64,000 nt of DNA from a phage. A model generated the notes under the pieces. It ran no database searches. It was not told the origin of the DNA and saw nothing but the letters and a program-made list of their open reading frames with translations. The stretch is from the NCBI GenBank assembly GCA_024790105.1, contig GCA_024790105.1_3053.1; one strand, given 5' to 3'. Positions 8,274 through 53,566 of this stretch are shown one piece after another. Both the position numbers and the translations under genes were made by a program. Each line of letters begins with the position of its first letter. The stretch's first letter is position 1.

Positions 8274-8805
8274 TACTGGCTCATCCATTCTTTACGAAGG
8301 TCAGCATTATCTCCCATGAGCATTTCAAAAAGCTCTTTCCAGTTCTCAGGAAGTTTAACAACATCATATACTGGGTTTTGAATCATTTCTTTATATTCAT
8401 CCCGCTGAAGTGAGCCCAATCCCTTGATGTATCGAATACTATGTTTAGGTAGAGCATCTTTAGCACTCTCATATTCAGCGACTGTATAAAACCATTCTTG
8501 TTTTTTACCTACCTGAGCGATGATTACAGGAGTTTTGACGAAGCGAATTCTTCCTTGTTCAAACAGTTCTGGCCAATTACTAAAAAATCCGAGCAGAGAA
8601 GGATAAATAGAACCTAATCCAATAATCTCTTAATTATGAGGTATTTCTATAGATAGCCCGAAGGCTATCCATCGTGATCTGCGTCTGTCATAATAGCGAC
8701 ATTCGCATAGTTCATTGAAGAGGATTTAATAGAACGACGAACATTGTTCTGCAATTTATATTTTTTCATATCAACGCTAGAAGAATCAATTTTTACAAAT
8801 TTCAT
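8273..8805 (-). CDS. 60: topoisomerase II small subunit gp60; join(8273..8617,8668..8805) with 50-nt translational bypass
   Basis: codons 1-46 (MKFVKIDSSS...TDADHDG) end at take-off GGA 8670-8668 followed by UAG; decoding resumes at UUA 8617-8615 after landing GGA 8620-8618; downstream 345-nt segment has no start codon and encodes LGSIYPSLLGFFSNWPELFEQGRIRFVKTP... Confidence 0.9.
8618..8667 (-). other. 50-nt untranslated coding gap (ribosomal hop) inside gene 60
   Basis: sequence GGA UAG CCU UCG GGC UAU CUA UAG AAA UAC CUC AUA AUU AAG AGA UUA UUG GA read directly on minus strand; take-off hairpin with UUCG loop. Confidence 0.9.
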
Positions 8806-9604
8806 TATACACCTCATAGAACTTTTCATCAGGAATCCAACCGCGTTTAAATTCATTAAATGCTCGGCCGAATAATTTTGAATTCACAGTTATATTATTA
8901 ACTGATTTCCATTTAGCAACTCCCGTTCGTTTATAATGATCGGGGTCATATTTCGTGACGTACCATTCATATAAATTTGGTATTAATTTTACAGCCTCTG
9001 GATTTGTCGCTGATTTATTATACCATGGTTTCGCTTTTTCAAGTTCAGCTGCTTTTGCAGTAGCAGCAACAGTATTTCCAATACCAACTAATTTTTCAGT
9101 TTTAATGCGTGGATCATTAACATGAAGACGAAAAACTTCGCCCTTTTCATTTTTAAAGCATGTCATGCCTTTAATTCCAGGAAGCTTAACACCTTTATTA
9201 ACACCGCACCATTCCTTTGGGTTAAATGATCCTTTAATTAATAAGGCGCATTTACCCGATTTAATATTTCTCATTAAAACTTTATCTTTCATAAAGTTTT
9301 TTGACCATTCAGATACTGCTCTTTGATGGTAAATTCTAGCAATTTCATATAATTTACTAGAACGTAAATATTTTTCAGTGTTTAACATTCTATTCATCGC
9401 ATATGCCATTTCACGATTACGATGAATTTTATATAGTAGAAAATGTGCTAAAAAGTGTTCACGAAAAGTCAGTTTCACCAAATTTTCTTTATCATCAGAA
9501 CCTCCCATTGATCTTGGAAGGATATGATGAATTTCACCCTTAAATTTAGAAACGCGGGTTTTACCCCGCACTATTAAGTCATTATAGATTTTTTCGTAAT
9601 TCAC
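8786..9604 (-). CDS. mobA: HNH homing endonuclease (MobA-like) inserted between genes 39 and 60
   Basis: 272-aa ORF with EIHHILPRSMGGSDDKENLV...H motif; ORF-track start at 9604 is GTG without SD, first in-frame ATG at 9508, so true start uncertain. Confidence 0.7.
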   Translation of the reverse strand: MNYEKIYNDLIVRGKTRVSKFKGEIHHILPRSMGGSDDKENLVKLTFREHFLAHFLLYKIHRNREMAYAMNRMLNTEKYLRSSKLYEIARIYHQRAVSEWSKNFMKDKVLMRNIKSGKCALLIKGSFNPKEWCGVNKGVKLPGIKGMTCFKNEKGEVFRLHVNDPRIKTEKLVGIGNTVAATAKAAELEKAKPWYNKSATNPEAVKLIPNLYEWYVTKYDPDHYKRTGVAKWKSVNNITVNSKLFGRAFNEFKRGWIPDEKFYEVYNEICKN

Positions 9605-11132
9605 CTACTGTTATCCATTTACCATTAATCTGTACTTCATCATTTTCATTTACGATAATTGTATCGCCATTTAGCTCGAAAGTAAACCACTCGCCATCTT
9701 CTTTTTCTTCAAACGCTTTTTCACCAAGAACTAATCCAGTGATTGCGCAAATATCAAACAGTTCTTTGTTTTTAAGCATATCAGCATATGACATACCCCA
9801 ACTGTTGAGAACTTTACCACGCAATGGATAACCACCGTGAAGTTCTTTATCACGAACATCAATAAGATATCCGATAGCAGAATCACCCTCAGTCAAGAAA
9901 AGAGTAGTGTCAGCATCTTTACTACAAAGATTCGCTTTGATATGTTTATGAACCTTAGCTTTAGAAGCCTTTTTAGCTGCTTTAGTTTCTGCTGCTTTCT
10001 CTGCCGCCAATTTACGAGCCAAAGCAGCTTCAATAATCGGCATCAGAATTGCTTCATTATTTAGAATAGCGCGTGAAATCTTTTTAGCATCAAGTTGAAT
10101 ATGACTACGAATTTCACCGAATGGAGAAGTCAAACGCTCTTTAGTTTGAGAATCAAATCGCATGTTTTTCATATCACGAACAAACATAACGATAGTCAAA
10201 CATTCTTTAACGCGTGCTTTAGTTACATCAATTTTGAACTTACGTTTGATTTGTGGAATAAGGTCTTCACAAATATCATCCATAACACAGTCAATGTGAT
10301 GGCCACCATTCTTAGTGTGAATGTTATTCACGTAAGTTAATTGACGAAATCCATCCGGTGAACGACCAACCGCAATAGAGCAATTTTCCTGTTCTTGAAC
10401 GATAGCATGCTCATCATACTGGCGTGCATACTTCTTAAAATTGCCCTGAACCTTTTTACCGTTAAAGGTAAATTGAATATCAGGATAAACTACTGCAAGT
10501 GTCTGGAGACGATCTAGTGTAATGTCAAGATAAACTTGAGATAGCTCATTAGTTTCAAATGACATAAAATCAGGAATGAAAGTAACGCGAGTTCCTTTCC
10601 ATTTTCCAGGAATAGTTTCCCATGATTTATTTTCCATGCCGTTTGAACAACGAACTACAATATTATTTTGACCGTCGCCAGTTTCACCGACAAACATCAC
10701 AGAAAAAATGTTAGTTAAACTAGAACCAACACCGTTCATACCACCGGTGACACGTTCTTTATCATCACCAAAGTTACCACCCGCTTTTGGAATAGTCCAC
10801 GCAGCAACAGGACCAGGAATTTCTTCACCGGTAGGTGTTTTAACCATCGCCTGTGGAATACCGCGACCGTTATCTTCAACTGTTACTTGATTATTTTTAA
10901 TAGTAACATTAATTTTATTCGCGAATTTAAACTTAGTACGAATACCTTCATCTACCGAGTTATCGATAATTTCATCAATAAGCTTAACAAGACCAGGTAC
11001 ATACTGAACACTTTCCCATTTACCAAACAGAAAGCGCTCATGCATTTCATTAGCAGAAGAGCCAATATACATGCCGCTACGCTTTTTGATATGTTCAATA
11101 TCGCTCAGAATTTTAATTTCATTCTTAATCAT
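9582..11132 (-). CDS. 39: topoisomerase II large subunit gp39 (GyrB-like ATPase), truncated form completed by gp60
   Basis: 516 aa from ATG 11132 (MIKNEIKILSD...) with GAGGATAA SD; ORF-track start is GTG one codon upstream. Confidence 0.95.
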   Translation of the reverse strand: MIKNEIKILSDIEHIKKRSGMYIGSSANEMHERFLFGKWESVQYVPGLVKLIDEIIDNSVDEGIRTKFKFANKINVTIKNNQVTVEDNGRGIPQAMVKTPTGEEIPGPVAAWTIPKAGGNFGDDKERVTGGMNGVGSSLTNIFSVMFVGETGDGQNNIVVRCSNGMENKSWETIPGKWKGTRVTFIPDFMSFETNELSQVYLDITLDRLQTLAVVYPDIQFTFNGKKVQGNFKKYARQYDEHAIVQEQENCSIAVGRSPDGFRQLTYVNNIHTKNGGHHIDCVMDDICEDLIPQIKRKFKIDVTKARVKECLTIVMFVRDMKNMRFDSQTKERLTSPFGEIRSHIQLDAKKISRAILNNEAILMPIIEAALARKLAAEKAAETKAAKKASKAKVHKHIKANLCSKDADTTLFLTEGDSAIGYLIDVRDKELHGGYPLRGKVLNSWGMSYADMLKNKELFDICAITGLVLGEKAFEEKEDGEWFTFELNGDTIIVNENDEVQINGKWITVGELRKNL

Positions 11133-11201
11133 CACTTATCCTCGTTTGGTTTCGGGAATATTATACTCCGGTAGTCATAAAGCTAAAGGCCCGAAGGCCT
11201 T

Positions 11202-11462
11202 TTATTTAAAGCGAATAGTCGAATCCTTGAAGAATAGTCCAGAACATACTGTTCCTTCTACTTTCTGTCCAGTAGGTCCAATAGCACGAAATCCAGTATG
11301 CTGGAAATCATTTTCAGAGCAACCGAACCAATTATATCCAGTGATTTCAATATTAGTAAAACCACTTGAAGACAAAACTTTGGTTGCATTATCAGCATCA
11401 GTACATCCTATTAAAGACACTGCTAATACTAATGCTGCAATAGAACGATTAATATATTTCAT
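11202..11462 (-). CDS. putative lipoprotein (86 aa)
   Basis: signal peptide with lipobox LIGC; ATG 11462 with AAAGGG SD. Confidence 0.6.
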   Translation of the reverse strand: MKYINRSIAALVLAVSLIGCTDADNATKVLSSSGFTNIEITGYNWFGCSENDFQHTGFRAIGPTGQKVEGTVCSGLFFKDSTIRFK

Positions 11463-11464
11463 AA

Positions 11465-11641
11465 TTACCCTTTAAGCAAGTCGTAAAATCCGCCATTCAC
11501 ATGCTTAGGGGCAGAGACTAACCGAATAGCAATCCGATGACAATCAGGACATACATCAGTATCTCTTTCAGAAATTTTCTTGATTTTTTCGTATTCTTTT
11601 GCGCAATCTTCGGATTGGCATTTATAATCATAAAGCGGCAT
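11465..11641 (-). CDS. small zinc-ribbon protein (58 aa), below ORF-track cutoff
   Basis: MPLYDYKCQSEDCAKEYEKIKKISERDTDVCPDCHRIAIRLVSAPKHVNGGFYDLLKG; two CxxC pairs; ATG 11641. Confidence 0.45.
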   Translation of the reverse strand: MPLYDYKCQSEDCAKEYEKIKKISERDTDVCPDCHRIAIRLVSAPKHVNGGFYDLLKG

Positions 11642-37598: not shown

Positions 37599-38285
37599 TT
37601 AAAAATCGTGGGTAGAATCAGCTTCAAGAGCTACTACATAATTCGCGTGTTCACCTTCAAATTTAGCAGCGCCTTGTTTACCTTTTGCCCAAAGCAGAAG
37701 TTTATAATTTCCTGGTTGCATTTTCATATTTGCCATATTGATAATGAAATTAAATGTATTTTCACCATCATAATCACCAAGAGTCAAAGAATATTTAACA
37801 CGGGTAAGAGCAGAATCTTCTACTTTATTAAAACCGTTAATTACGATTTTACCTTCTTTTACCGTGATAGCAATTGTATCAATTTGCAGACCACGAGATA
37901 CACGCAATAGTTGTTGAAGGTCTTCAGCTTTAATTTCAGTAACAACAGATGCTACCGGGAATGGAATTGGTTTATTAGGAGCAACTACTGTACTCGGATC
38001 GGCTGCTGGCCAAAAAATTGTTGAACGAGCATCAGCAATTTTAATATTTCCATCTTCTGACTGGGAAATTTCTGCATCGTCATTAACTAGAGACAGAATA
38101 CCGAGAAAACCGTTCAAATCGTAAATTGCTACATCAAAATCAATAACGTCAGAAATATTTGCTTCCGCATAAGTTGTACCATTAACTGCGCGAGTCATAA
38201 TAAATTGACCAGATTTAAGCATAATGCCAGAGTTAATAGTAGCGAAATTTTTCAAAATATTCAGTGTGTCTTTAGATAATTTCAT
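37599..38285 (-). CDS. 45: sliding clamp gp45
   Basis: 228 aa; ATG 38285 with AGGAAATTGAA SD. Confidence 0.95.
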   Translation of the reverse strand: MKLSKDTLNILKNFATINSGIMLKSGQFIMTRAVNGTTYAEANISDVIDFDVAIYDLNGFLGILSLVNDDAEISQSEDGNIKIADARSTIFWPAADPSTVVAPNKPIPFPVASVVTEIKAEDLQQLLRVSRGLQIDTIAITVKEGKIVINGFNKVEDSALTRVKYSLTLGDYDGENTFNFIINMANMKMQPGNYKLLLWAKGKQGAAKFEGEHANYVVALEADSTHDF

Positions 38286-39169
38286 TTCAATTTCCTATTT
38301 ACATAATAGTTAGACCAGGACCGTACAGCACCCTGATAAGATTCGTCGTTAAACCCATTAGCTACTGCAATTTTACGAAATTTATTATAACTCGGTTTTC
38401 CGTAAGCATGCCATAAAGATTTTAATTCATCTTCATGTTCAATCCAAGTTCCTCTAGCTTTAGATTTTCTAAATTTTGATTTGAATTCCGGTAAATTATT
38501 TCTAACAGTTGCTTGAATTGAAGCTCTCTGTCTTCTTTCAGCATTATTCCATAATTCTTTTTGAGATTTAGAAATTTTTGATCTTACACTTTCTGAATTC
38601 ATTATATCACTAAACTTTTTAGCATAACTACAATCAAGATATTTCAATTTCATCTTATTTGAGAGTTTAAGCTTTTTCTCATCGGTCCAGTGATTCTTCA
38701 TTGAATTAGATATTTTGTATTTTACCTCAGAACTATGTTTGTAACCTTTACGAATACCGACATACTCAGGCGTAATTTCAGATTGCGAAAGCTTTACAAT
38801 TTTTCCAGTTAAAACATTTTTATATGTTCCATATCCTTTAGCACCAATTAAAGTATTTTCATCCGCGTATGCTTTATTAAAATATTTTATATTACTTTTT
38901 GCTTTAACTTTTAATTGAAAAAATCTTTCCAATTTTCTTGGATCTAATATAGTTTCAGCTAAAATTTTGACGGTATATTTAGTGGTTTTAATAAGCTCAA
39001 AATATTCATCACTATAACTAGATGACACGCTTCCAGTATAAATCTTTCCAGCTGAATCAATTATATTTGTTCCATCGAAAATTGCGTTAATTTTTGAACC
39101 TATATAATAACACGGAAAAATATTTTTAGCTTCCCGCTCTGGAAAGCTAATAAGATATACTAAATTCAT
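38282..39169 (-). CDS. Seg-like GIY-YIG homing endonuclease (295 aa) between gene 45 and rpbA
   Basis: VYLISF...YYIGS motif, NUMOD-like repeats, C-terminal domain resembling SegA; ATGA overlaps with both neighbours. Confidence 0.75.
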
Positions 39170-39555
39170 TTATTAAAATCAGCTGCGATTGTTTCGGCAA
39201 CAATTTGTGCAGCAACAATTAGACGTTCATCTGCATTACCGCAATATTCATCTTCTAAACGTTCACCGCATGAAGTCATAATAAATTTAGCAGCGGCGTT
39301 TAGGGATTCTGCAGTATGTTTGCGCATTAGTTCAATCCATTTATTACTTACTTCACGATCGATAGCTTCATAATACGCATGACGAGCAGGTGCAGATTTA
39401 ATTTTGTTCTGAATAACTTCCATTGCGTTATCAGAAAGAGACGAAACCCATGCGCGACGAATTTTATTTTGGTTTTGCGGATTTGAGTCAGAACGCACGT
39501 GTTTTGGCTGAATATCTTTTACATCAACAGTATAATTCACAGTAATTTTAGTCAT
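39166..39555 (-). CDS. rpbA: RNA polymerase-binding protein RpbA-like (129 aa)
   Basis: ATG 39555 with AAAGGTG SD; length and position. Confidence 0.7.
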
Positions 39556-39564
39556 AATACACCT

Positions 39565-39756
39565 TTAGTCATAATAATCAGTAACAGTCCAAGCTTCATT
39601 TCTATTGGACATTATTTTTGTATATTCTGCTTTAAATGCATTCCTAAGCATAGATTCAGTAACTATATGCTCTTCATTAGAAAAATTATTTCTCAGAATA
39701 TATCGTTTTATTTCAGGAAAAGTTAATAGATGCTGTCCAGTTGAATATTCTGCCAC
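39565..39756 (-). CDS. hypothetical protein (63 aa)
   Basis: GTG 39756 preceded by GGAGGAACT SD. Confidence 0.5.
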   Translation of the reverse strand: MAEYSTGQHLLTFPEIKRYILRNNFSNEEHIVTESMLRNAFKAEYTKIMSNRNEAWTVTDYYD

Positions 39757-39766
39757 AGTTCCTCCG

Positions 39767-39774
39767 TATAAATA
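39767..39774 (+). promoter_or_regulatory. late-promoter-like TATAAATA on plus strand
   Basis: TATAAATA 34 nt upstream of the plus-strand HNH gene start. Confidence 0.4.
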
Positions 39775-39807
39775 TGCTTATCACTCGCTGTATCAAAAGG
39801 ATATGTT

Positions 39808-40524
39808 ATGAATTATAAACTAATTTATGAAAAGTTAATATCTAATGCTAAATCTCGAAAACTTGATTGCTATACTGAATCTCATCACATTATACCGCGC
39901 TGTTTAAATGGAAGTGATGATGCTTCAAACTTAGTAGATTTAACACCAGAAGAGCACTATGTAGCTCATCAACTTTTAGTAAAAATTTATCCTTCTGAAC
40001 CAAAATTAGTCTATGCTGCTAACATGATGACAGTTTCTACGAAATACGCTAAACGCAACAATAAAACTTTCGGTTGGATTCGTCGTAAACTCTGGGAAAT
40101 AGAAAAGAACAAAGAATTCTCCCAGGAGACACGAAAGAAAATGTCTGATGCAGTAGCTAATAAAGCAAGACTAACTTGTCCTCATTGCGGTAAGTCTGGA
40201 TTAAGCGGGAATATGAATCGTTGGCATTTTGATAACTGCCCAAATCACCCTAATCCTAAAGTTAGACCACCAATGTCTAAAGAACACAGAAATAATATCT
40301 CAAACGGGCTTAAAGCAATCGTTCTTGAAGAAACATCCTGCGAATTCTGCGGAATGATAGGCAAGAAATGCGTTATCGCAGCGCATAGAAATTTCTGCAA
40401 GAAAAATCCAAATGGACGCAAGAAAACTGAAAAGACTGGTACTTGCGTCCATTGCGGTAAAGTTACCACTTTCGGAAATTTATCAAGGTGGCATAATGAT
40501 AACTGTAAATATAAACCTAGCTAA
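39808..40524 (+). CDS. Mob-family HNH homing endonuclease (238 aa) on plus strand
   Basis: ATG 39808 with AAGGAT SD; ESHHIIPRCLNGSDDASNLV...H motif similar to MobA N-terminus; duplicated CxxC...WHxDNC modules. Confidence 0.8.
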   Translation: MNYKLIYEKLISNAKSRKLDCYTESHHIIPRCLNGSDDASNLVDLTPEEHYVAHQLLVKIYPSEPKLVYAANMMTVSTKYAKRNNKTFGWIRRKLWEIEKNKEFSQETRKKMSDAVANKARLTCPHCGKSGLSGNMNRWHFDNCPNHPNPKVRPPMSKEHRNNISNGLKAIVLEETSCEFCGMIGKKCVIAAHRNFCKKNPNGRKKTEKTGTCVHCGKVTTFGNLSRWHNDNCKYKPS

Positions 40525-42205
40525 TCTTAGCTAAACTAAATCTACCAACTTTTTCCATCTGAATATGCTGACCATATTCTTGTGGGTCATGGTCTTTATG
40601 CGAAATTATGAAGAAGTTGGTATCCTTCAAACCATCTAAAATTTTAGCTACATTTTTAATGCCTTCAGCATCAAATGCACCATCATACACTTCATCAAGA
40701 AATAAACAACTTATTTTAACACCTGAAACTTTTTCAGCAATATCACGCCAAGTAAATAAAAGAGCAATATCAATTCGTGCTTTTTCGCCTTGACTAAATG
40801 AAGCATAACTAAAATCTTCACGACCACGGGATTTAATTGTCTCATTAAATTCTTCATCTAATGTAAACACATAATCCGCTTCCATTATTTTAAGATAATG
40901 GTTAATCTGCTTATTAAATAATGGAATGTACTTTTTAATAATAGCACCTTTAATACCAGAATCTTTGAGCATATCAGTCAAAATTCCTCGGTGGTATTTT
41001 TCCATTACTAAATTAGTTTTTGTCTTAACAATTTTATCAAGTTCTTCTTGAAGCAGTGCTATTTCATCAGCATGGTCAATAAACTCAGAAGATGCTTTTT
41101 CTATAGCTGCTTTAACTTTTTTAGCTTTATCTACCGTCGTGATTAGAGATTGCTTTTTATTGCGAATATCATTTGCCAACGACTGCTGGGTTTTAATATT
41201 ATCTCGGTATTCATCAACAAGAACTTTTAAATTATCACGATGTGTTGAAAGCTGTTCAAACGAATGCGTACATTCAGAAACTTTATCTTTAATTTTAGAA
41301 ACAACTTTATCACCGGAACTTAATTGTGACAGACAGGTTGGACATAATCCGCCTTCGTGATACATATTAATGACTTTATTATACGAGTCAATTTTTGATT
41401 TAATTAAAACTGCTTCTTGACCGATTTTATTAAATGCATCAGTCGGGTCTTCATCCAAAACAATATTAACTAATCTTTCATTAGCTTCTTCTATTTCCGA
41501 TTTTAGCGTTCTAGCTTCTTTTGCCAAATCATCATACATATTTTGTAGACGAGTAAGGTTGTCACCCGTTAATTTTTTCTGGCGTTCAACGTTATCATTA
41601 TATATTTTAATTTGTTGGATAATACTATCTTTTTTAACATCAAGCACTTGGTTTTGTGAATTTAATTCACGTATTAGTGCTTTATTAAGCTTATCCATTT
41701 CAGCTAATGTTCCTACCTCAAGCAGGTCTTCCACAAGCTTTCTTCGCGCAGGGGTCGACAAACCCATGAAAGGGGTATACCCTGCTGTACCAAGGACAAC
41801 AATCTGCTTGAAACTGGCATATGACATTCCGATAAGCTGTTCAAATTCTGCTTGGAAATCTTTACTGCTGGCAGATTCATTAAGACGTGTACCGTTAACG
41901 GTGATTTCGAAAACGTTTGGTTTTTGTCCTCTTTTGATATAGTACTTTTTCTCATCATATTCCATCCACAGTTCAACTAAAAGTTCTTTCTTATTTGTGC
42001 TGTTTATTAATTGACCTTTCTTTACATCACGAAATGGCTTGCCAAAAAGCCCAAATGTGATGGCTTCTAACATAGTAGACTTACCACCGCCATTTCGTCC
42101 AGTAATAAGAGTTTTTTGAACCTTATCTAATTGAATGTCAATCCCATTTTGACCAACTGACATTATATTTTTATATTTTACTCTGTTAAGTTTAAAATTC
42201 TTCAC
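40517..42205 (-). CDS. 46: recombination nuclease subunit gp46 (SbcC/Rad50-like)
   Basis: 562 aa; GTG 42205 overlapping upstream stop with AAGGAA SD; Walker A GRNGGGKST. Confidence 0.9.
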   Translation of the reverse strand: MKNFKLNRVKYKNIMSVGQNGIDIQLDKVQKTLITGRNGGGKSTMLEAITFGLFGKPFRDVKKGQLINSTNKKELLVELWMEYDEKKYYIKRGQKPNVFEITVNGTRLNESASSKDFQAEFEQLIGMSYASFKQIVVLGTAGYTPFMGLSTPARRKLVEDLLEVGTLAEMDKLNKALIRELNSQNQVLDVKKDSIIQQIKIYNDNVERQKKLTGDNLTRLQNMYDDLAKEARTLKSEIEEANERLVNIVLDEDPTDAFNKIGQEAVLIKSKIDSYNKVINMYHEGGLCPTCLSQLSSGDKVVSKIKDKVSECTHSFEQLSTHRDNLKVLVDEYRDNIKTQQSLANDIRNKKQSLITTVDKAKKVKAAIEKASSEFIDHADEIALLQEELDKIVKTKTNLVMEKYHRGILTDMLKDSGIKGAIIKKYIPLFNKQINHYLKIMEADYVFTLDEEFNETIKSRGREDFSYASFSQGEKARIDIALLFTWRDIAEKVSGVKISCLFLDEVYDGAFDAEGIKNVAKILDGLKDTNFFIISHKDHDPQEYGQHIQMEKVGRFSLAKIS

Positions 42206-49391: not shown

Positions 49392-49862
49392 TTAATCATG
49401 TTTCCACACCCCATCGGTATTTGACCAAAGTCGCTGATTATCTGATCCTCGCCACAGCTTTTTAGTCGGAAGATTTTTCTCATACTTCCCATCAATAATA
49501 ACATCAACATATTTAAGCATTTCTAGTTGTTTAATATCCTCAAACTTATATCCTGTCCACAACCAAATGCTTTTATTTGGATAAAGATTTTTTACTGTTT
49601 GAACAATGCAATGAATAACATCTCGGTTATCAGGATAGAGAGGGTCTCCTCCAGTTATAGTCAATCCTTCTATATAATCATTATTCAAACATTCAATTAA
49701 TTGTTCCAGTGTTTCACCAGTGAATGGAACGCCATTTCTAGCATTCCATGTTGATTTATTATAACACCCTTCGCATTTATGCAAACAACCAGTAACGAAA
49801 AGAACTGTCCTGCATCCAGGACCATTAACAAAGCAGCACGGGTATATTCTGTCATAATTCAT
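49392..49862 (-). CDS. nrdG: anaerobic ribonucleotide reductase activating protein NrdG (radical SAM)
   Basis: 156 aa; CLHKCEGC motif; ATG 49862. Confidence 0.9.
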   Translation of the reverse strand: MNYDRIYPCCFVNGPGCRTVLFVTGCLHKCEGCYNKSTWNARNGVPFTGETLEQLIECLNNDYIEGLTITGGDPLYPDNRDVIHCIVQTVKNLYPNKSIWLWTGYKFEDIKQLEMLKYVDVIIDGKYEKNLPTKKLWRGSDNQRLWSNTDGVWKHD

Positions 49863-50691
49863 TTATATATTTCCAATTATAGCCTTCAACACTTTTACGT
49901 TCGCCATTTAAACATTTTAAAATATTTCCTTTGCTAGAAATATTAAAATATTTTGCTGCGTCTGGTATATAATTAAATGTTTTTAAAAGAACACCATCTT
50001 TATATGCGCCAAATAAATTAAGAGTATATTTTTCTCGAAGACGCTGATGTTTCCTTTTCATAACCTCAGGATTTGCATACGCCAACTTCAATGAATTTCT
50101 GTGTTTTTCTTTTACTTCAGGTTTTTGCATTGCTAACTTAGTTAGCCTGGAAATTTTATTTCTAACTTCGTCAGTTTTCATTGCATTTGACAAATTTAAT
50201 AAAGTTTTATTTCTAACTTCAGGTTTTTGCATTGCTAACTTAGTTAGTTCTCTATGTCTTTTTCTAAAATCGTCATCCTTCCATATATTTTTCGATAATT
50301 TTGACATAGAGCGGTGAAATAATTCCTTTTCACTGGAATACAATTTAAAAATTTCATCCAATTCATCCGCATTAAATCTATCGGTATTCGAGTTTATCAT
50401 TCTATGAAAGGCATAACACATTTTACTATTGCTTGTTTTAGCTAAATAGTAATGAGCTAACGCATGGTCATAATATGACAAATTAACAATATTCCATTTA
50501 TCTGTTTTATATTCAGGAAATATAGATTTGGGAAGCACGTGATGTGCTTCCGTTTTTCCTTTTATTTTAGGATTATTATAATTTTTTGTTATCAAATCAA
50601 CATATGACAATAGTAAATCATTATTTTCTTCAAATATTAAAGATAATTTATCATTCACAAAATCGCAAGGATAAAATCTATCATAATTCAT
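49852..50691 (-). CDS. HNH homing endonuclease (MobC-like) between nrdD and nrdG
   Basis: 279 aa; EAHHVLPKS...DHALAH motif; N-terminus MNYDRFYPCDFVN duplicates nrdG N-terminus. Confidence 0.8.
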   Translation of the reverse strand: MNYDRFYPCDFVNDKLSLIFEENNDLLLSYVDLITKNYNNPKIKGKTEAHHVLPKSIFPEYKTDKWNIVNLSYYDHALAHYYLAKTSNSKMCYAFHRMINSNTDRFNADELDEIFKLYSSEKELFHRSMSKLSKNIWKDDDFRKRHRELTKLAMQKPEVRNKTLLNLSNAMKTDEVRNKISRLTKLAMQKPEVKEKHRNSLKLAYANPEVMKRKHQRLREKYTLNLFGAYKDGVLLKTFNYIPDAAKYFNISSKGNILKCLNGERKSVEGYNWKYINEL

Positions 50692-50703: not shown

Positions 50704-53566
50704 CTATGCATGTTTTACTCGTTTTACCATTTCTTTCATTTTACCTAAATTCCATGGGACAACGCTAGGAGTTCCAAGATATCCGCATGTTCTTCTTATT
50801 GTGTTCATCTTTTTAGGATCAGTTTCTCCACAAATAGAACAAACAAATCCGTTTTCAGTAGGAGTCATTTCATGGGTACTTCCACATGTAAAACATTTAT
50901 CTACTGGCATGTTAACACCAAAATAATCTAAATGTTGTACAGCATAATCCCATACAGCCTCAAGACCTTTTAGGTTATTTTTCATATCAGGAAGTTCAAC
51001 ATAAGAAATGTGACCACCTGTCGCAATGAAATGATATGGCGCTTCACGAGAAATCTTTTCAAACGGAGTAATATTTTCTTCTACTGAAACATGGAAACTG
51101 TTAGTGTACCAGCCTTTATCGGTAACATCCTTTACACTTCCATATTTTTCTGTATCAAGTTTACAGAAGCGATAACAAAGGTTTTCAGCAGGAGTCGAAT
51201 ATAAACTAAAAGCAAATCCAGTTCTTTCAGTCCACTGTTTAAGATGAGCATTCATTTTAGTTAAAATTTCCTGTCCAATATCACGACCGACAAGAATATT
51301 CAATTCATGAATACCAATGTATCCTAGGGACACTGAACTTCTACCATTTTTAAATAACTCAATTATATCGTCATCAGGTTTAAGACGAACCCCGAATGCA
51401 CCTTCTTGGTAAAGAATAGGAGCAACAGTCGCTTTAACTCCTTTTAAGGAACTAATTCTACACATCAAAGCTTCAAAACACAGATCCATTCGTTCATTGA
51501 ATAATTCAGTAAATTTCTGTTCATTGAACTGTGTTCCAATATAAGAATCTAACGCAATACGAGGAAGATTCAGTGTTACAACACCAAGATTATTACGTCC
51601 ATCAAGAATTTCATTACCAGTCGAATCTTTCCATACGCTCAAGAAACTACGGCAACCCATTGGAGAAACAGGAACAGATGAACCAGTGATAGCTTTATTG
51701 TTCTTAGCTGAAATAATATCAGGATACATCCTTTTGCTTGCACACTCTAGAGCAAGCTGTTTAATATCATAGTTCGGATCGTCTTTGTAAAGATTAACGC
51801 CTTCTTCGACGAACATAACAAGCTTAGGGAAAATAGGAGTTATCCCATCACGACCGAGACCTTTAATACGATTTTTCAGAATTGCTTTCTGAATCATTCG
51901 TTCAGTCCAGTCAGTTCCTGTACCAAATGTAATTGTTACAAAAGGTGTTTGTCCGTTTGAACTGAAAAGTGTATTTACTTCATCATTATATTCAGCATGA
52001 GTCGCAAATTCATGCCCGTTTATATGAAACGACAAAATTTGGATAGTCCATAGATATGCAACGTTCTTTTATAGTGCTAGGATGAAAATTTAGCGCTTTA
52101 GCTGCTTCTATATAAGACGTATACTTAATACCGTCAACAACCACATATTCAGGAACTTTATGAATAGTAGTCTTAATACTCAAAACAAGAGGATGAGTTT
52201 CGACTTCACTTTCAGTGCAATTTAAATATTCCGCTGCTTTTTTAAAACTTCTAAAAGTTTTATTTTTAAGCTTTATCGATACTTGTTTTTTACTTTTTCG
52301 ACTATTGATATTATTTTGCACATGTTCCTTAGATCTTCTGTTTTTAGCATAATATTCAGCCACAGAAGATTTTATATTGTTTTTATGAGATTCGGATAAC
52401 ACTTTACCCTTATGAGCATCTCTTAATTTTTGAATATGTTCTTCAGTATCCGGATGCTTATAAAACTTTTTACCGCCTATGGATTTATTTAAACATTTTT
52501 TGCTATAAAAATATTTACGTATGACCTCTTCTTCATGTTTTAATGCATCTTTATAACTATCAAATGTTTTTAAAATTATCCATTTAGTAGGTGTATCAGT
52601 TTTTAAGCGTTCATTTATATACTTAGATGACGTTGTGTAAGTTTTCCAGTTTGTGGGCTTGTTTTTAACTGTTCTAAATTTTTTATAACCGATATAAATG
52701 TCGCCATTAGAAAACTTAACTAAGTATGTAAATGCGTCTTTATCTTTTATTTTAGTACAACGTCTTTTTATCCATTTCATTGTTTCACCTCGTATTCATA
52801 AGATAATCTTATTTATACAAGATGACTGCTGCATGTCGCCATGCAGATTAGACTATATCTTCATCTTTCGATGCCGGCCGTTTCGAATAGCATTAGCTTC
52901 TATTCTACACCGCTACATTCATCACGGTTAGTCGTTAGGCATTTAGTTCAAAAGAACATTTAGCACGGGATTGTCTACTAGAGAGGTTCCCCGTTTAGAC
53001 CGGTTTTACATGAGCCTGAATTAAATTAACTCATACGCCTGGAATGCATCGTATACGTCTTTTTCTGTTTTAGATTGAGCATAATTCAACGCATCAGCGA
53101 TTTGCCATTTTTCTGCATCTTCAATATGTTTTGCATAGGTGCGTTTAACATAAGGAGAAAGTACTTTATCTACATTAGCAAAAGTCGTTCCGCCGTATTG
53201 GTGAGAAGCAACCTGTGCAGTAATTTGCGCCATAATTGCAGTAGCAACGCCAATTGATTTAGGAGTTTCAATCTGCGCATTACCAAGCTTAAATCCGTTC
53301 TCAAGCATTCCTTTTAAATCTACTAAACAGCAATTAGTAAAAGGAAGAGCAGGGGAATAATCAATATCGTGCACGTGAATAATTCCGCTTTCATGCGCTT
53401 TCATAATAAAAGACGGGACCATATTTTTGGCAATGTGTTTAGACACAATACCAGCCATAAGGTCCCGTTGAGTTGGAAAAACACGAGAATCTTTATTAGC
53501 ATTCTCGTTTAAAAGGTCTTTATTAGTTTTATGAATCAATCCTTCAATTTCTTTTTCAATTGTCAT
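50704..53566 (-). CDS. nrdD: anaerobic ribonucleotide reductase NrdD, interrupted by a group I intron; inferred join(50704..51983,53029..53566)
   Basis: exon 1 ORF from ATG 53566 and exon 2 ORF ending in glycyl-radical RRTCGYLG and Zn ribbon; splice coordinates inferred from U/G boundary rule assuming a 605-aa product. Confidence 0.8.
51984..53028 (-). mobile_element. group I intron (sunY/nrdD type) with 3'-located endonuclease ORF; boundaries approximate
   Basis: ribozyme core CUAAACGGGGAACCUCUCUAGUAGACAAUCCCGUGCUAAAU...AAAUGCCUAACGACUA...GAGAUAUAGUCU...CUGCAUGGCGACAUGCAGC read at 52781-53020. Confidence 0.7.
52010..52780 (-). CDS. intron-encoded GIY-YIG-type homing endonuclease (256 aa)
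   Basis: ATG 52780 with GAGGTGAAACA SD; TYLVKFSNGDIYIGY motif and NUMOD-like repeats. Confidence 0.75.
   Translation of the reverse strand: MKWIKRRCTKIKDKDAFTYLVKFSNGDIYIGYKKFRTVKNKPTNWKTYTTSSKYINERLKTDTPTKWIILKTFDSYKDALKHEEEVIRKYFYSKKCLNKSIGGKKFYKHPDTEEHIQKLRDAHKGKVLSESHKNNIKSSVAEYYAKNRRSKEHVQNNINSRKSKKQVSIKLKNKTFRSFKKAAEYLNCTESEVETHPLVLSIKTTIHKVPEYVVVDGIKYTSYIEAAKALNFHPSTIKERCISMDYPNFVVSYKRA

Follow-up and report, generated by a model that had tools for sequence, protein, structure and literature searches.

A plus-strand endonuclease gene in an early-gene region

The window, by which we mean the whole 64-kb stretch of phage DNA that was analysed (64,000 nucleotides), is the early-gene region of a T4-like phage (Tequatrovirus). 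The genes rIIA, 39, dda, 41, uvsX, 43, 62/44, 45, rpbA, 45.2, 46 and 47 follow one another in T4-like order, all on the minus strand, and the closest public records over positions 39000-41200 were those of Tequatrovirus BCH953P4, phage N2 and Salmonella phage F13076 (97-98% identity). Between 45.2 and 46 lies an open reading frame (ORF) of 238 amino acids with an ATG start (39808..40524, plus strand), in the opposite orientation to every neighbour. This ORF, which an earlier note on the same DNA had reported, is real, and we refer to it as HEG, a putative HNH homing endonuclease gene. The earlier note had also called it one of only two plus-strand genes in the window. That description was supported for HEG but no second gene could be confirmed: when the other plus-strand ORFs of at least 110 amino acids in the window were checked, the candidate at 11071-11475 and three others had no family match and ran antisense to known minus-strand genes.

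Gene 46 (40517..42205, minus strand, 562 amino acids) encodes the Rad50-like subunit of a nuclease that processes DNA breaks. The ORF coordinates bear out the claim that HEG converges on this gene. The two 3' ends share 8 nt (40517-40524); what had been described as overlapping stops is an overlap of the ORF ends, whereas the stop codons themselves are separate (TAA at 40522-40524 for HEG; TAG, the complement of 40517-40519, for gene 46).

The same gene occupies the same locus in phages RB32 (RB32ORF054w, accession DQ904452; 99.6% protein identity) and RB51 (RB51ORF057, accession FJ839693; 97.9% identity). The RB51 product differs in having 237 amino acids and ending in KHKH, with a 4-nt overlap with gene 46 rather than 8 nt. 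The RB32 record is annotated as 'putative site-specific intron-like DNA endonuclease, similar to mobB', and RB51 likewise. Table 5 of Petrov et al. 2010, which gives counts only, lists two mob-like HNH genes in RB32 (PMC2993671), and RB32ORF054w appears to be one of them. HEG is already catalogued, having been in GenBank since 2006 with an annotation that is essentially right, and its family is well studied; no experimental study of HEG or RB32ORF054w was found in the literature searched.

A conserved late promoter-like octamer precedes HEG

The T4-type late promoter octamer TATAAATA was identified at 39767..39774 on the plus strand, its last base 34 nt from the A of the HEG start codon (33 nt between). 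This is the position given in the earlier note, and it is the placement expected of a T4-type late promoter, in which the octamer lies at about -10 upstream of the gene. The octamer occurs four times in the window on both strands together, compared with 9.9 copies expected, and 98 of 100 shuffled sequences contained at least four. The motif is therefore depleted in the window and not a chance product of A+T-rich DNA. The copy upstream of HEG is the only one on the plus strand. Of the three minus-strand copies, one lies upstream of a soc-like late gene and another (52810) upstream of a GIY-YIG-type homing endonuclease gene (52010-52780); these two make sense as late promoters.

Analysis of orthologous loci revealed a perfect octamer at the same position in Tequatrovirus, Dhakavirus, Mosigvirus and Klebsiella phage Roth78, where the proteins outside Tequatrovirus are 57-64% identical to that of HEG. 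Depletion and conservation together argue against a chance origin. Cronuts and phT4A, which carry the most distant orthologues, have an imperfect form of it (CTAAATA or TTAAATA), and we count this against a late-expressed homing endonuclease. Taken together, these data point to a late promoter from which gp55/gp33/gp45-dependent transcription would start.

The predicted 5' leader (39775..39807, plus strand) carries the Shine-Dalgarno sequence AAGGA (39797-39801), 6 nt before the ATG, and the elements TTATC and GTATCAAA. The pattern TATC ... TATCA.A was invariant across seven orthologous leaders. Because TTATC is found after two further late promoters of the window, it is probably part of the start-site context; GTATCAAA is conserved among the orthologues and placed downstream of the octamer. 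Two forms of post-transcriptional or autogenous control known from related genes were considered for the leader and rejected. For an RNA structure hiding the ribosome site, as in mobE and I-TevI, RNAalifold returned no pairs and single folds gave z scores of -1.1 to +1.2. To look for an autorepression operator like that of I-TevI, we compared positions 39757-39812, which cover promoter and leader, with a sequence made up of the T4 empty site and 300 bp of gene 46. The top local match scored 9, compared with 9.8 +/- 1.3 for shuffled sequences, and consisted of the shared ribosome site alone. A small hairpin with the Shine-Dalgarno sequence in its loop recurs in four lineages and is not significant.

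A scan for intrinsic terminators downstream of the HEG ORF found none, and the late transcript therefore probably runs on antisense into gene 46. Short hairpins straddle the stop codons; they have 7 bp and are G+C-rich in MX01, ESCO47 and Roth78, and are A+T-rich in the window.

HEG encodes a Mob-type HNH domain and three zinc fingers

To place the HEG protein we combined profile searches, BLASTP and an AlphaFold2 model. The protein matched PHROG 655 'homing endonuclease' (E 8.6e-69) and PHROG 12434 'HNH endonuclease' (E 1.6e-10). The Pfam HNH profile PF01844 scored 16.9 bits (E 0.0072), below its gathering cutoff of 21.4, and this we count against the homing endonuclease assignment; PF01844 is present in some homologues. 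The Mob-type HNH catalytic domain spans amino acids 1-100 (39808..40107, plus strand), and its H26, H27, N41, H50 and H54, which form the HNH catalytic and metal motif, were invariant in 80 homologues.

In BLASTP searches the N-terminal 110 or so amino acids matched T4 MobB (44% identity, E 3e-29), MobE (42.5% over 120 amino acids, E 2e-28), MobD (53% over 75 amino acids, E 5e-23), MobC (37%, E 7e-22) and an intact MobA-like ORF of the window itself (38%, E 1e-18). The description of HEG as related to MobA is thus true at the family level alone, since the MobA-like ORF of the window matches at 38% and the RB32 record reads 'similar to mobB'; MobB, MobE, MobD and MobC all match better. The protein shares the N-terminal HNH domain of the T4 Mob family and, like members of that family, its gene is free-standing between conserved genes (45.2 and 46) and sporadic among close relatives.

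Two NUMOD3-like helices follow the catalytic domain. The first (FSQETRKKMSDAVA; 40117..40158, plus strand) is helical at residues 106-117 of the model and the second (MSKEHRNNISNGLKA; 40273..40317, plus strand) at residues 158-170, and both follow the pattern S-x-E-x-R/K-x-K-x-S. The Pfam NUMOD3 profile PF07460 had no match in the HEG protein at E <= 0.1; it is carried by most homologues at 35-45% identity.

The earlier note had described tandem CxxC...WHxDNC modules together with an HNH motif. Both are present, but the fingers number three and the second reads AHRNFC, while the first and third carry RWHxDNC. Finger 1 (C124-x2-C127-x12-H140-x3-C144; 40177..40239, plus strand) forms a beta-beta-alpha unit in the model, with its residues conserved in at least 90% of homologues. 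Finger 2 (C178-x2-C181-x11-H193-x3-C197; 40339..40398, plus strand) is degenerate and has 38% identity to the T4 I-TevIII remnant over 63 amino acids (E 2e-7). Finger 3 (C213-x2-C216-x12-H229-x3-C233; 40444..40506, plus strand) has four ligands that are invariant in 80 homologues. In BLAST searches the fingers matched the T4 I-TevIII remnant (38-50% identity) and a finger that T4 encodes in nrdB.1, immediately downstream of mobE. The AlphaFold2 model had a mean pLDDT of 93 and a beads-on-a-string arrangement. Whole-model fold searches gave weak matches to zinc-finger arrays and small HNH domains, which again was counted against the homing endonuclease reading, and a search of solved structures by sequence returned nothing significant.

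This architecture resembles that of I-TevIII of phage RB3, which joins an HNH catalytic domain to C-terminal CX2CX12-13HX3C fingers that bind zinc and DNA (PMC1865063). Fingers 1 and 3 of HEG fit this motif exactly, and the spacer of finger 2 has 11 residues. I-TevIII is encoded by a group I intron of nrdB, has two fingers and makes a double-strand break as a dimer; in contrast, HEG is free-standing and has three fingers. The HEG ORF is intergenic, runs antisense to its neighbours and interrupts no gene. HEG is like I-TevIII in architecture and is not an intron endonuclease.

HEG is sporadic among close relatives and under purifying selection

The earlier note had proposed a comparison of the rpbA-46 interval in related phages. 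This comparison revealed a sporadic distribution: HEG was present at >=95% nucleotide identity in about 60 of the 623 Tequatrovirus records matching the region and absent from about 90%, with empty sites in T4, T2, wV7 and sb4. The note had set a conserved non-mobile function against its own proposal; the absence of the gene from most close relatives argues against such a function. The ORF was full length in all of the approximately 60 Tequatrovirus copies sampled.

Orthologues convergent with gene 46 were found in at least five other lineages. These include MX01 and 04086 (Dhakavirus; 64% protein identity), ESCO47 (Mosigvirus; 57%), Klebsiella phage Roth78 (63%), and phT4A (Slopekvirus) and Cronuts (Pseudotevenvirus; 42-44% for these two). 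The neighbour on the other side differs in phT4A and Cronuts, so the stable partner is gene 46. In many Mosigvirus records 45.2 and 46 form an uninterrupted junction, so the distribution is sporadic in that genus too. Identity between genera was 57-64% for HEG, compared with 66-82% for gp46, 60-77% for gp45 and 38-45% for RpbA. A divergence similar to that of its neighbours would fit long residence in each lineage as well as recent spread, which we count against the homing endonuclease reading, and the comparison gave no sign of recent transfer across genera.

The ratio dN/dS was 0-0.11 among close Tequatrovirus alleles and 0.1-0.2 between genera, and the HEG allele differed from that of phage N2 by 17 synonymous and no non-synonymous changes. 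These values indicate that the protein is kept functional by strong purifying selection. Persistence at one locus in several genera, together with purifying selection, is what one would expect if a homing endonuclease were still spreading. The ESCO47 copy has HY in place of HH, so that some copies may be inactive, a further point against the homing endonuclease reading. Phage Ac3 had been considered as an extreme case of purifying selection (98% amino acid versus 77% nucleotide identity) and was set aside, as its sequence looks recoded or back-translated; this block, known from a single record, encodes a protein 100% identical to that of RB51 with a GC3 of 60% and serine codon-class switches of 40-50%.

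The inserted cassette replaces parts of both neighbouring genes

The edges of the insertion were defined by junction alignments of four carriers and four non-carriers (T4, T2, wV7 and sb4). The whole inserted cassette is 786 bp long (39751..40536) and replaces 72 bp of the T4-type 45.2/46 junction, which forms a clean 72-bp empty site in all four non-carriers. The 45.2 flank beyond it is 99-100% identical to T4.

The cassette supplies new ends for both neighbours. At the 45.2 side it carries a start region (39754..39765, minus strand) in which GTG-GCA replaces ATG, with GGAGGAA upstream; the N-terminus of gp45.2 accordingly reads V-A-E-Y-S in 4/4 carriers and M-E-Y-S in 4/4 non-carriers. At the other side it supplies the last codons of gene 46 (40517..40536, minus strand; …VGRF-SLAKIS*), antisense to the 3' end of HEG. 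The gp46 tail after VGRF is SLAKIS in the RB32 type and SVATIN in the RB51 type, compared with TVMV in T4, T2, wV7 and sb4.

A MotA-type middle-promoter-like motif of the T4 spacer, TGCTTTAATTTATTAGAGTATAAT, is lost in carriers, and promoter displacement is a hazard of invading endonuclease genes according to Edgell et al. (PMC2988022). By pattern matching, a candidate MotA-type middle promoter, TGCTTTAAGCCCGTTTGAGATATTAT, was located inside HEG on the minus strand (40292..40317); it is identical in RB32, N2 and RB51 and absent from the other genera, and about 0.1 such match is expected by chance in 717 bp. It is conceivable that this antisense motif substitutes for the lost spacer promoter. 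We leave this as speculation because the motif is kept only among near-identical alleles and because of the chance expectation of about 0.1 match.

HEG is linked to a diverged 3' end of gene 46

Next to the cassette, gene 46 ends in a diverged block of about 230 bp (40537..40760, minus strand) that is linked to HEG and shows 62-88% identity between carriers and non-carriers. In contrast, the remaining 1.4 kb of gene 46 is 97-100% identical between the two groups. All 25 fixed differences between carriers and non-carriers fall within 40522-40708. A database search with 40530-40760 split the records cleanly into two classes: 60 matched at >=95%, all others reached 90% or less, and the interval of 90-95% was empty. 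The number of records with the carrier block (60) compares with 59 copies of HEG at >=95% nucleotide identity, so the linkage is near-perfect. In the Rad50-like gp46 this block corresponds to the conserved segment ...FIISHKDHDPQ..., and homing endonucleases would tend to recognise constrained sequences of this sort.

The asymmetry of the locus, with a diverged gene 46 end on one side and a T4-like 45.2 on the other, is the trace that free-standing homing endonucleases usually leave, and the gene 46 block likely holds both the target and the immunity polymorphisms. Naive genomes would be cut in the conserved neighbour gene, and the changes that protect the element's own genome would be co-converted with HEG during repair. 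MobE provides a precedent, as it nicks the conserved neighbouring gene nrdB and co-converts flanking DNA (PMC2790892). MobE is further like HEG in being a free-standing Mob-type HNH protein with a NUMOD3-like helix and, together with the nrdB.1 frame, a CPHCGK...RWHxDxC finger. The two also differ: mobE lacks its own promoter, is co-oriented with the genes around it and contains an internal terminator (PMC2790892), and MobE has one finger and targets nrdB, compared with the three fingers and the predicted gene 46 target of HEG.

Proposed mechanism and alternative explanations

The intact HNH/zinc-finger gene with its octamer, the insertion polymorphism, the cassette edges and the linked gene 46 allele can all be read directly from the DNA. 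We propose, with a probability of roughly 0.7, that HEG is an active, late-expressed, free-standing HNH homing endonuclease of the T4 Mob/I-TevIII family that acts on phages without the gene, with its target at the gene 46 3' end or the 46/45.2 junction. Late in infection, RNA polymerase modified by gp55/gp33/gp45 would start at TATAAATA, and the short-leader mRNA would be translated from AAGGA-N6-ATG. By analogy with I-TevIII, the NUMOD3-like helices and the three CCHC fingers would bind a long site in DNA and the N-terminal HNH domain would nick or cut nearby; the sequence fits either a nicking enzyme of the MobE kind or a dimeric, double-strand-cutting enzyme of the I-TevIII kind. The linkage suggests that the target, in co-infecting relatives without HEG, is the conserved gene 46 3' end or the 46/45.2 junction. 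Recombination repair would then copy the 786-bp cassette together with about 230 bp of the donor gene 46 3' end, and the footprint expected of this is seen in the occurrence of both in the same approximately 60 records. The cassette is adapted to its host, with a new gp46 tail and a new 45.2 start codon and ribosome site visible in its sequence, and the late transcript would probably read through antisense into gene 46. The suggestion in the earlier note that this is an independently regulated selfish element is supported by the sporadic distribution, the empty site, the gene 46 block, the family membership and the conserved octamer.

HEG could instead have been domesticated or put to dual use, its late antisense-oriented transcription unit or its protein benefiting the phage, for example by damping late gene 46/47 expression or by disabling the recombination nuclease gene of competitors; homing would then not be the main cause of its persistence. 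Such a role would suit the finding of the gene convergent with gene 46 in at least six lineages, the divergence similar to that of the neighbours and the strong purifying selection, as well as the lack of a terminator after the ORF, which makes antisense read-through into gene 46 likely. We nevertheless consider it unlikely, because about 90% of Tequatrovirus records lack the gene, 45.2 and 46 are contiguous in many Mosigvirus records, and the carrier-specific gene 46 block is a classic footprint of homing or marker exclusion. The association with the gene 46 3' end spans several genera and the conserved late promoter points antisense into 46/47, and for these reasons we also raise the doubtful idea of a competition device that would break a rival's recombination-nuclease gene and convert it to its own allele, or of a late antisense RNA that would tune 46/47. 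If this idea were true, the element would evolve jointly with a piece of about 230 bp of an essential gene, the two forming a single unit.

A further explanation is that TATAAATA is unused and that HEG is near-silent, or otherwise expressed, and persists by linkage. Near-silence has been proposed for segD, the only T4 homing endonuclease gene that is oriented against its neighbours and one with no identified promoter (PMC2988022), and the octamer is imperfect in Cronuts and phT4A. However, the octamer is rarer than expected in the region and has no other copy on the plus strand, four lineages with coding sequences only 57-64% identical keep it at an unchanged distance, and a silent gene would not give a dN/dS of 0-0.1. 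We regard this explanation as very unlikely. That HEG is a decaying relic, an inactive endonuclease remnant hitch-hiking with a gene 46 allele, has counterparts in the defective mobA and I-TevIII remnants of T4 itself and in the HH to HY change of the ESCO47 copy, but is highly improbable given a full-length ORF in all of the approximately 60 Tequatrovirus copies sampled, invariant catalytic residues and zinc ligands, and a dN/dS of 0-0.11.

Significance

All T4 homing endonuclease genes are co-oriented with their neighbours except segD, and endonuclease-specific promoters in T4 comprise five middle and two late cases (PMC2988022). segD is of the GIY-YIG type and lies among late genes, whereas HEG has a conserved late promoter octamer of its own. 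The combination of the rare inverted orientation with a conserved late promoter is a variation within a known theme and not a new kind of element.

The locus illustrates cleanly how a free-standing homing endonuclease gene fits into its host genome: a middle-promoter-like motif, the start codon of 45.2 and the tail of gp46 are all overwritten by the cassette, which supplies replacements and brings a private allele of the gene 46 3' end with it. Its main value lies in a sharply defined predicted target region and in a cassette that mends the damage to its neighbour genes. The three-finger DNA-binding array might be of interest for compact nuclease engineering.

Homing endonuclease-like genes beside gene 45, gene 39 and nrdD

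The interval between gene 45 and rpbA is occupied by another homing-endonuclease-like ORF, which encodes 295 aa (window 38282-39169, minus strand; PHROG 655, E 4e-33; PHROG 7504, E 5e-18) and overlaps the gene on each side by 4 nt. Because of its position, rpbA-45.2 is flanked by two endonuclease genes. T4, RB32 and RB51 lack the ORF, and its database coverage was limited to four records. In T4 a MotA-type motif lies in the rpbA/45 spacer, whereas in the window this spacer is replaced by the 295-aa ORF. A MotA-type middle-promoter-like motif (TGCTTACGGAAAACCGAGTTATAAT) was identified inside the 3' end of the ORF (38384-38408, minus strand), with gene 45 approximately 100 nt downstream; a motif of this type also lies at 8634-8658 (minus strand) of comparison record L001. 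TGCTTACGGAAAACCGAGTTATAAT may represent a replacement promoter brought by the cassette.

Three further genes or ORFs of homing endonuclease type were identified, all on the minus strand. An intact MobA-like HNH gene (8786-9604; 272 aa, GTG start; PHROG 655, E 3e-57) adjoins gene 39; in contrast, T4 retains just a 37-aa mobA remnant at the same place. The mobC position in the nrdG/nrdD interval is taken by a 279-aa Mob-type HNH ORF (49852-50691; PHROG 655, E 5e-37), and nrdD also neighbours a GIY-YIG-type gene (52010-52780; PHROG 314, E 2.6e-29). A perfect TATAAATA late promoter octamer (52810-52817, minus strand) lies 30 nt upstream of the ATG of the GIY-YIG-type gene, and thus two of the four copies of TATAAATA in the window serve homing endonuclease genes.

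Orthologues of the 238-aa endonuclease

Examination of the orthologues revealed a leader element, GTATCAAA (window 39786-39793), a short distance upstream of the Shine-Dalgarno sequence and kept in the orthologous leaders of every lineage examined. The HNH motif carries an otherwise invariant HH, which is replaced by HY in the Mosigvirus ESCO47 orthologue (record L007, 2535-3251). The HY substitution may mark an inactivated copy. Close relatives in the protein database retained HH.

In phage Ac3 (GenBank OK040907; record L004, 2552-4950), the endonuclease and gp46 match their RB51 counterparts at 100% protein identity; however, DNA identity across this block was only 75-77%. The block extends exactly from the endonuclease ATG to the gene 46 start, and has a GC content of 47-48% (compared with 33-36% otherwise) and a GC3 of 60% (compared with ~25% otherwise). 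TCN <-> AGY codon switches were present at 40-50% of its conserved serines. The block occurs in this record alone. It looks like recoded or back-translated sequence rather than natural divergence.

A related architecture in T4

In the T4 nrdB.1 reading frame (record L017, 5717-5968), a NUMOD3-like stretch is accompanied by a CCHC finger (CPHCGKKVNKGNALRWHYDKC) that shares homology with those of the 238-aa endonuclease. The annotated mobE (141 aa) lies just upstream of nrdB.1 and is read in another frame. Taken together, T4 mobE and nrdB.1 look like a single HNH-NUMOD3-finger architecture.
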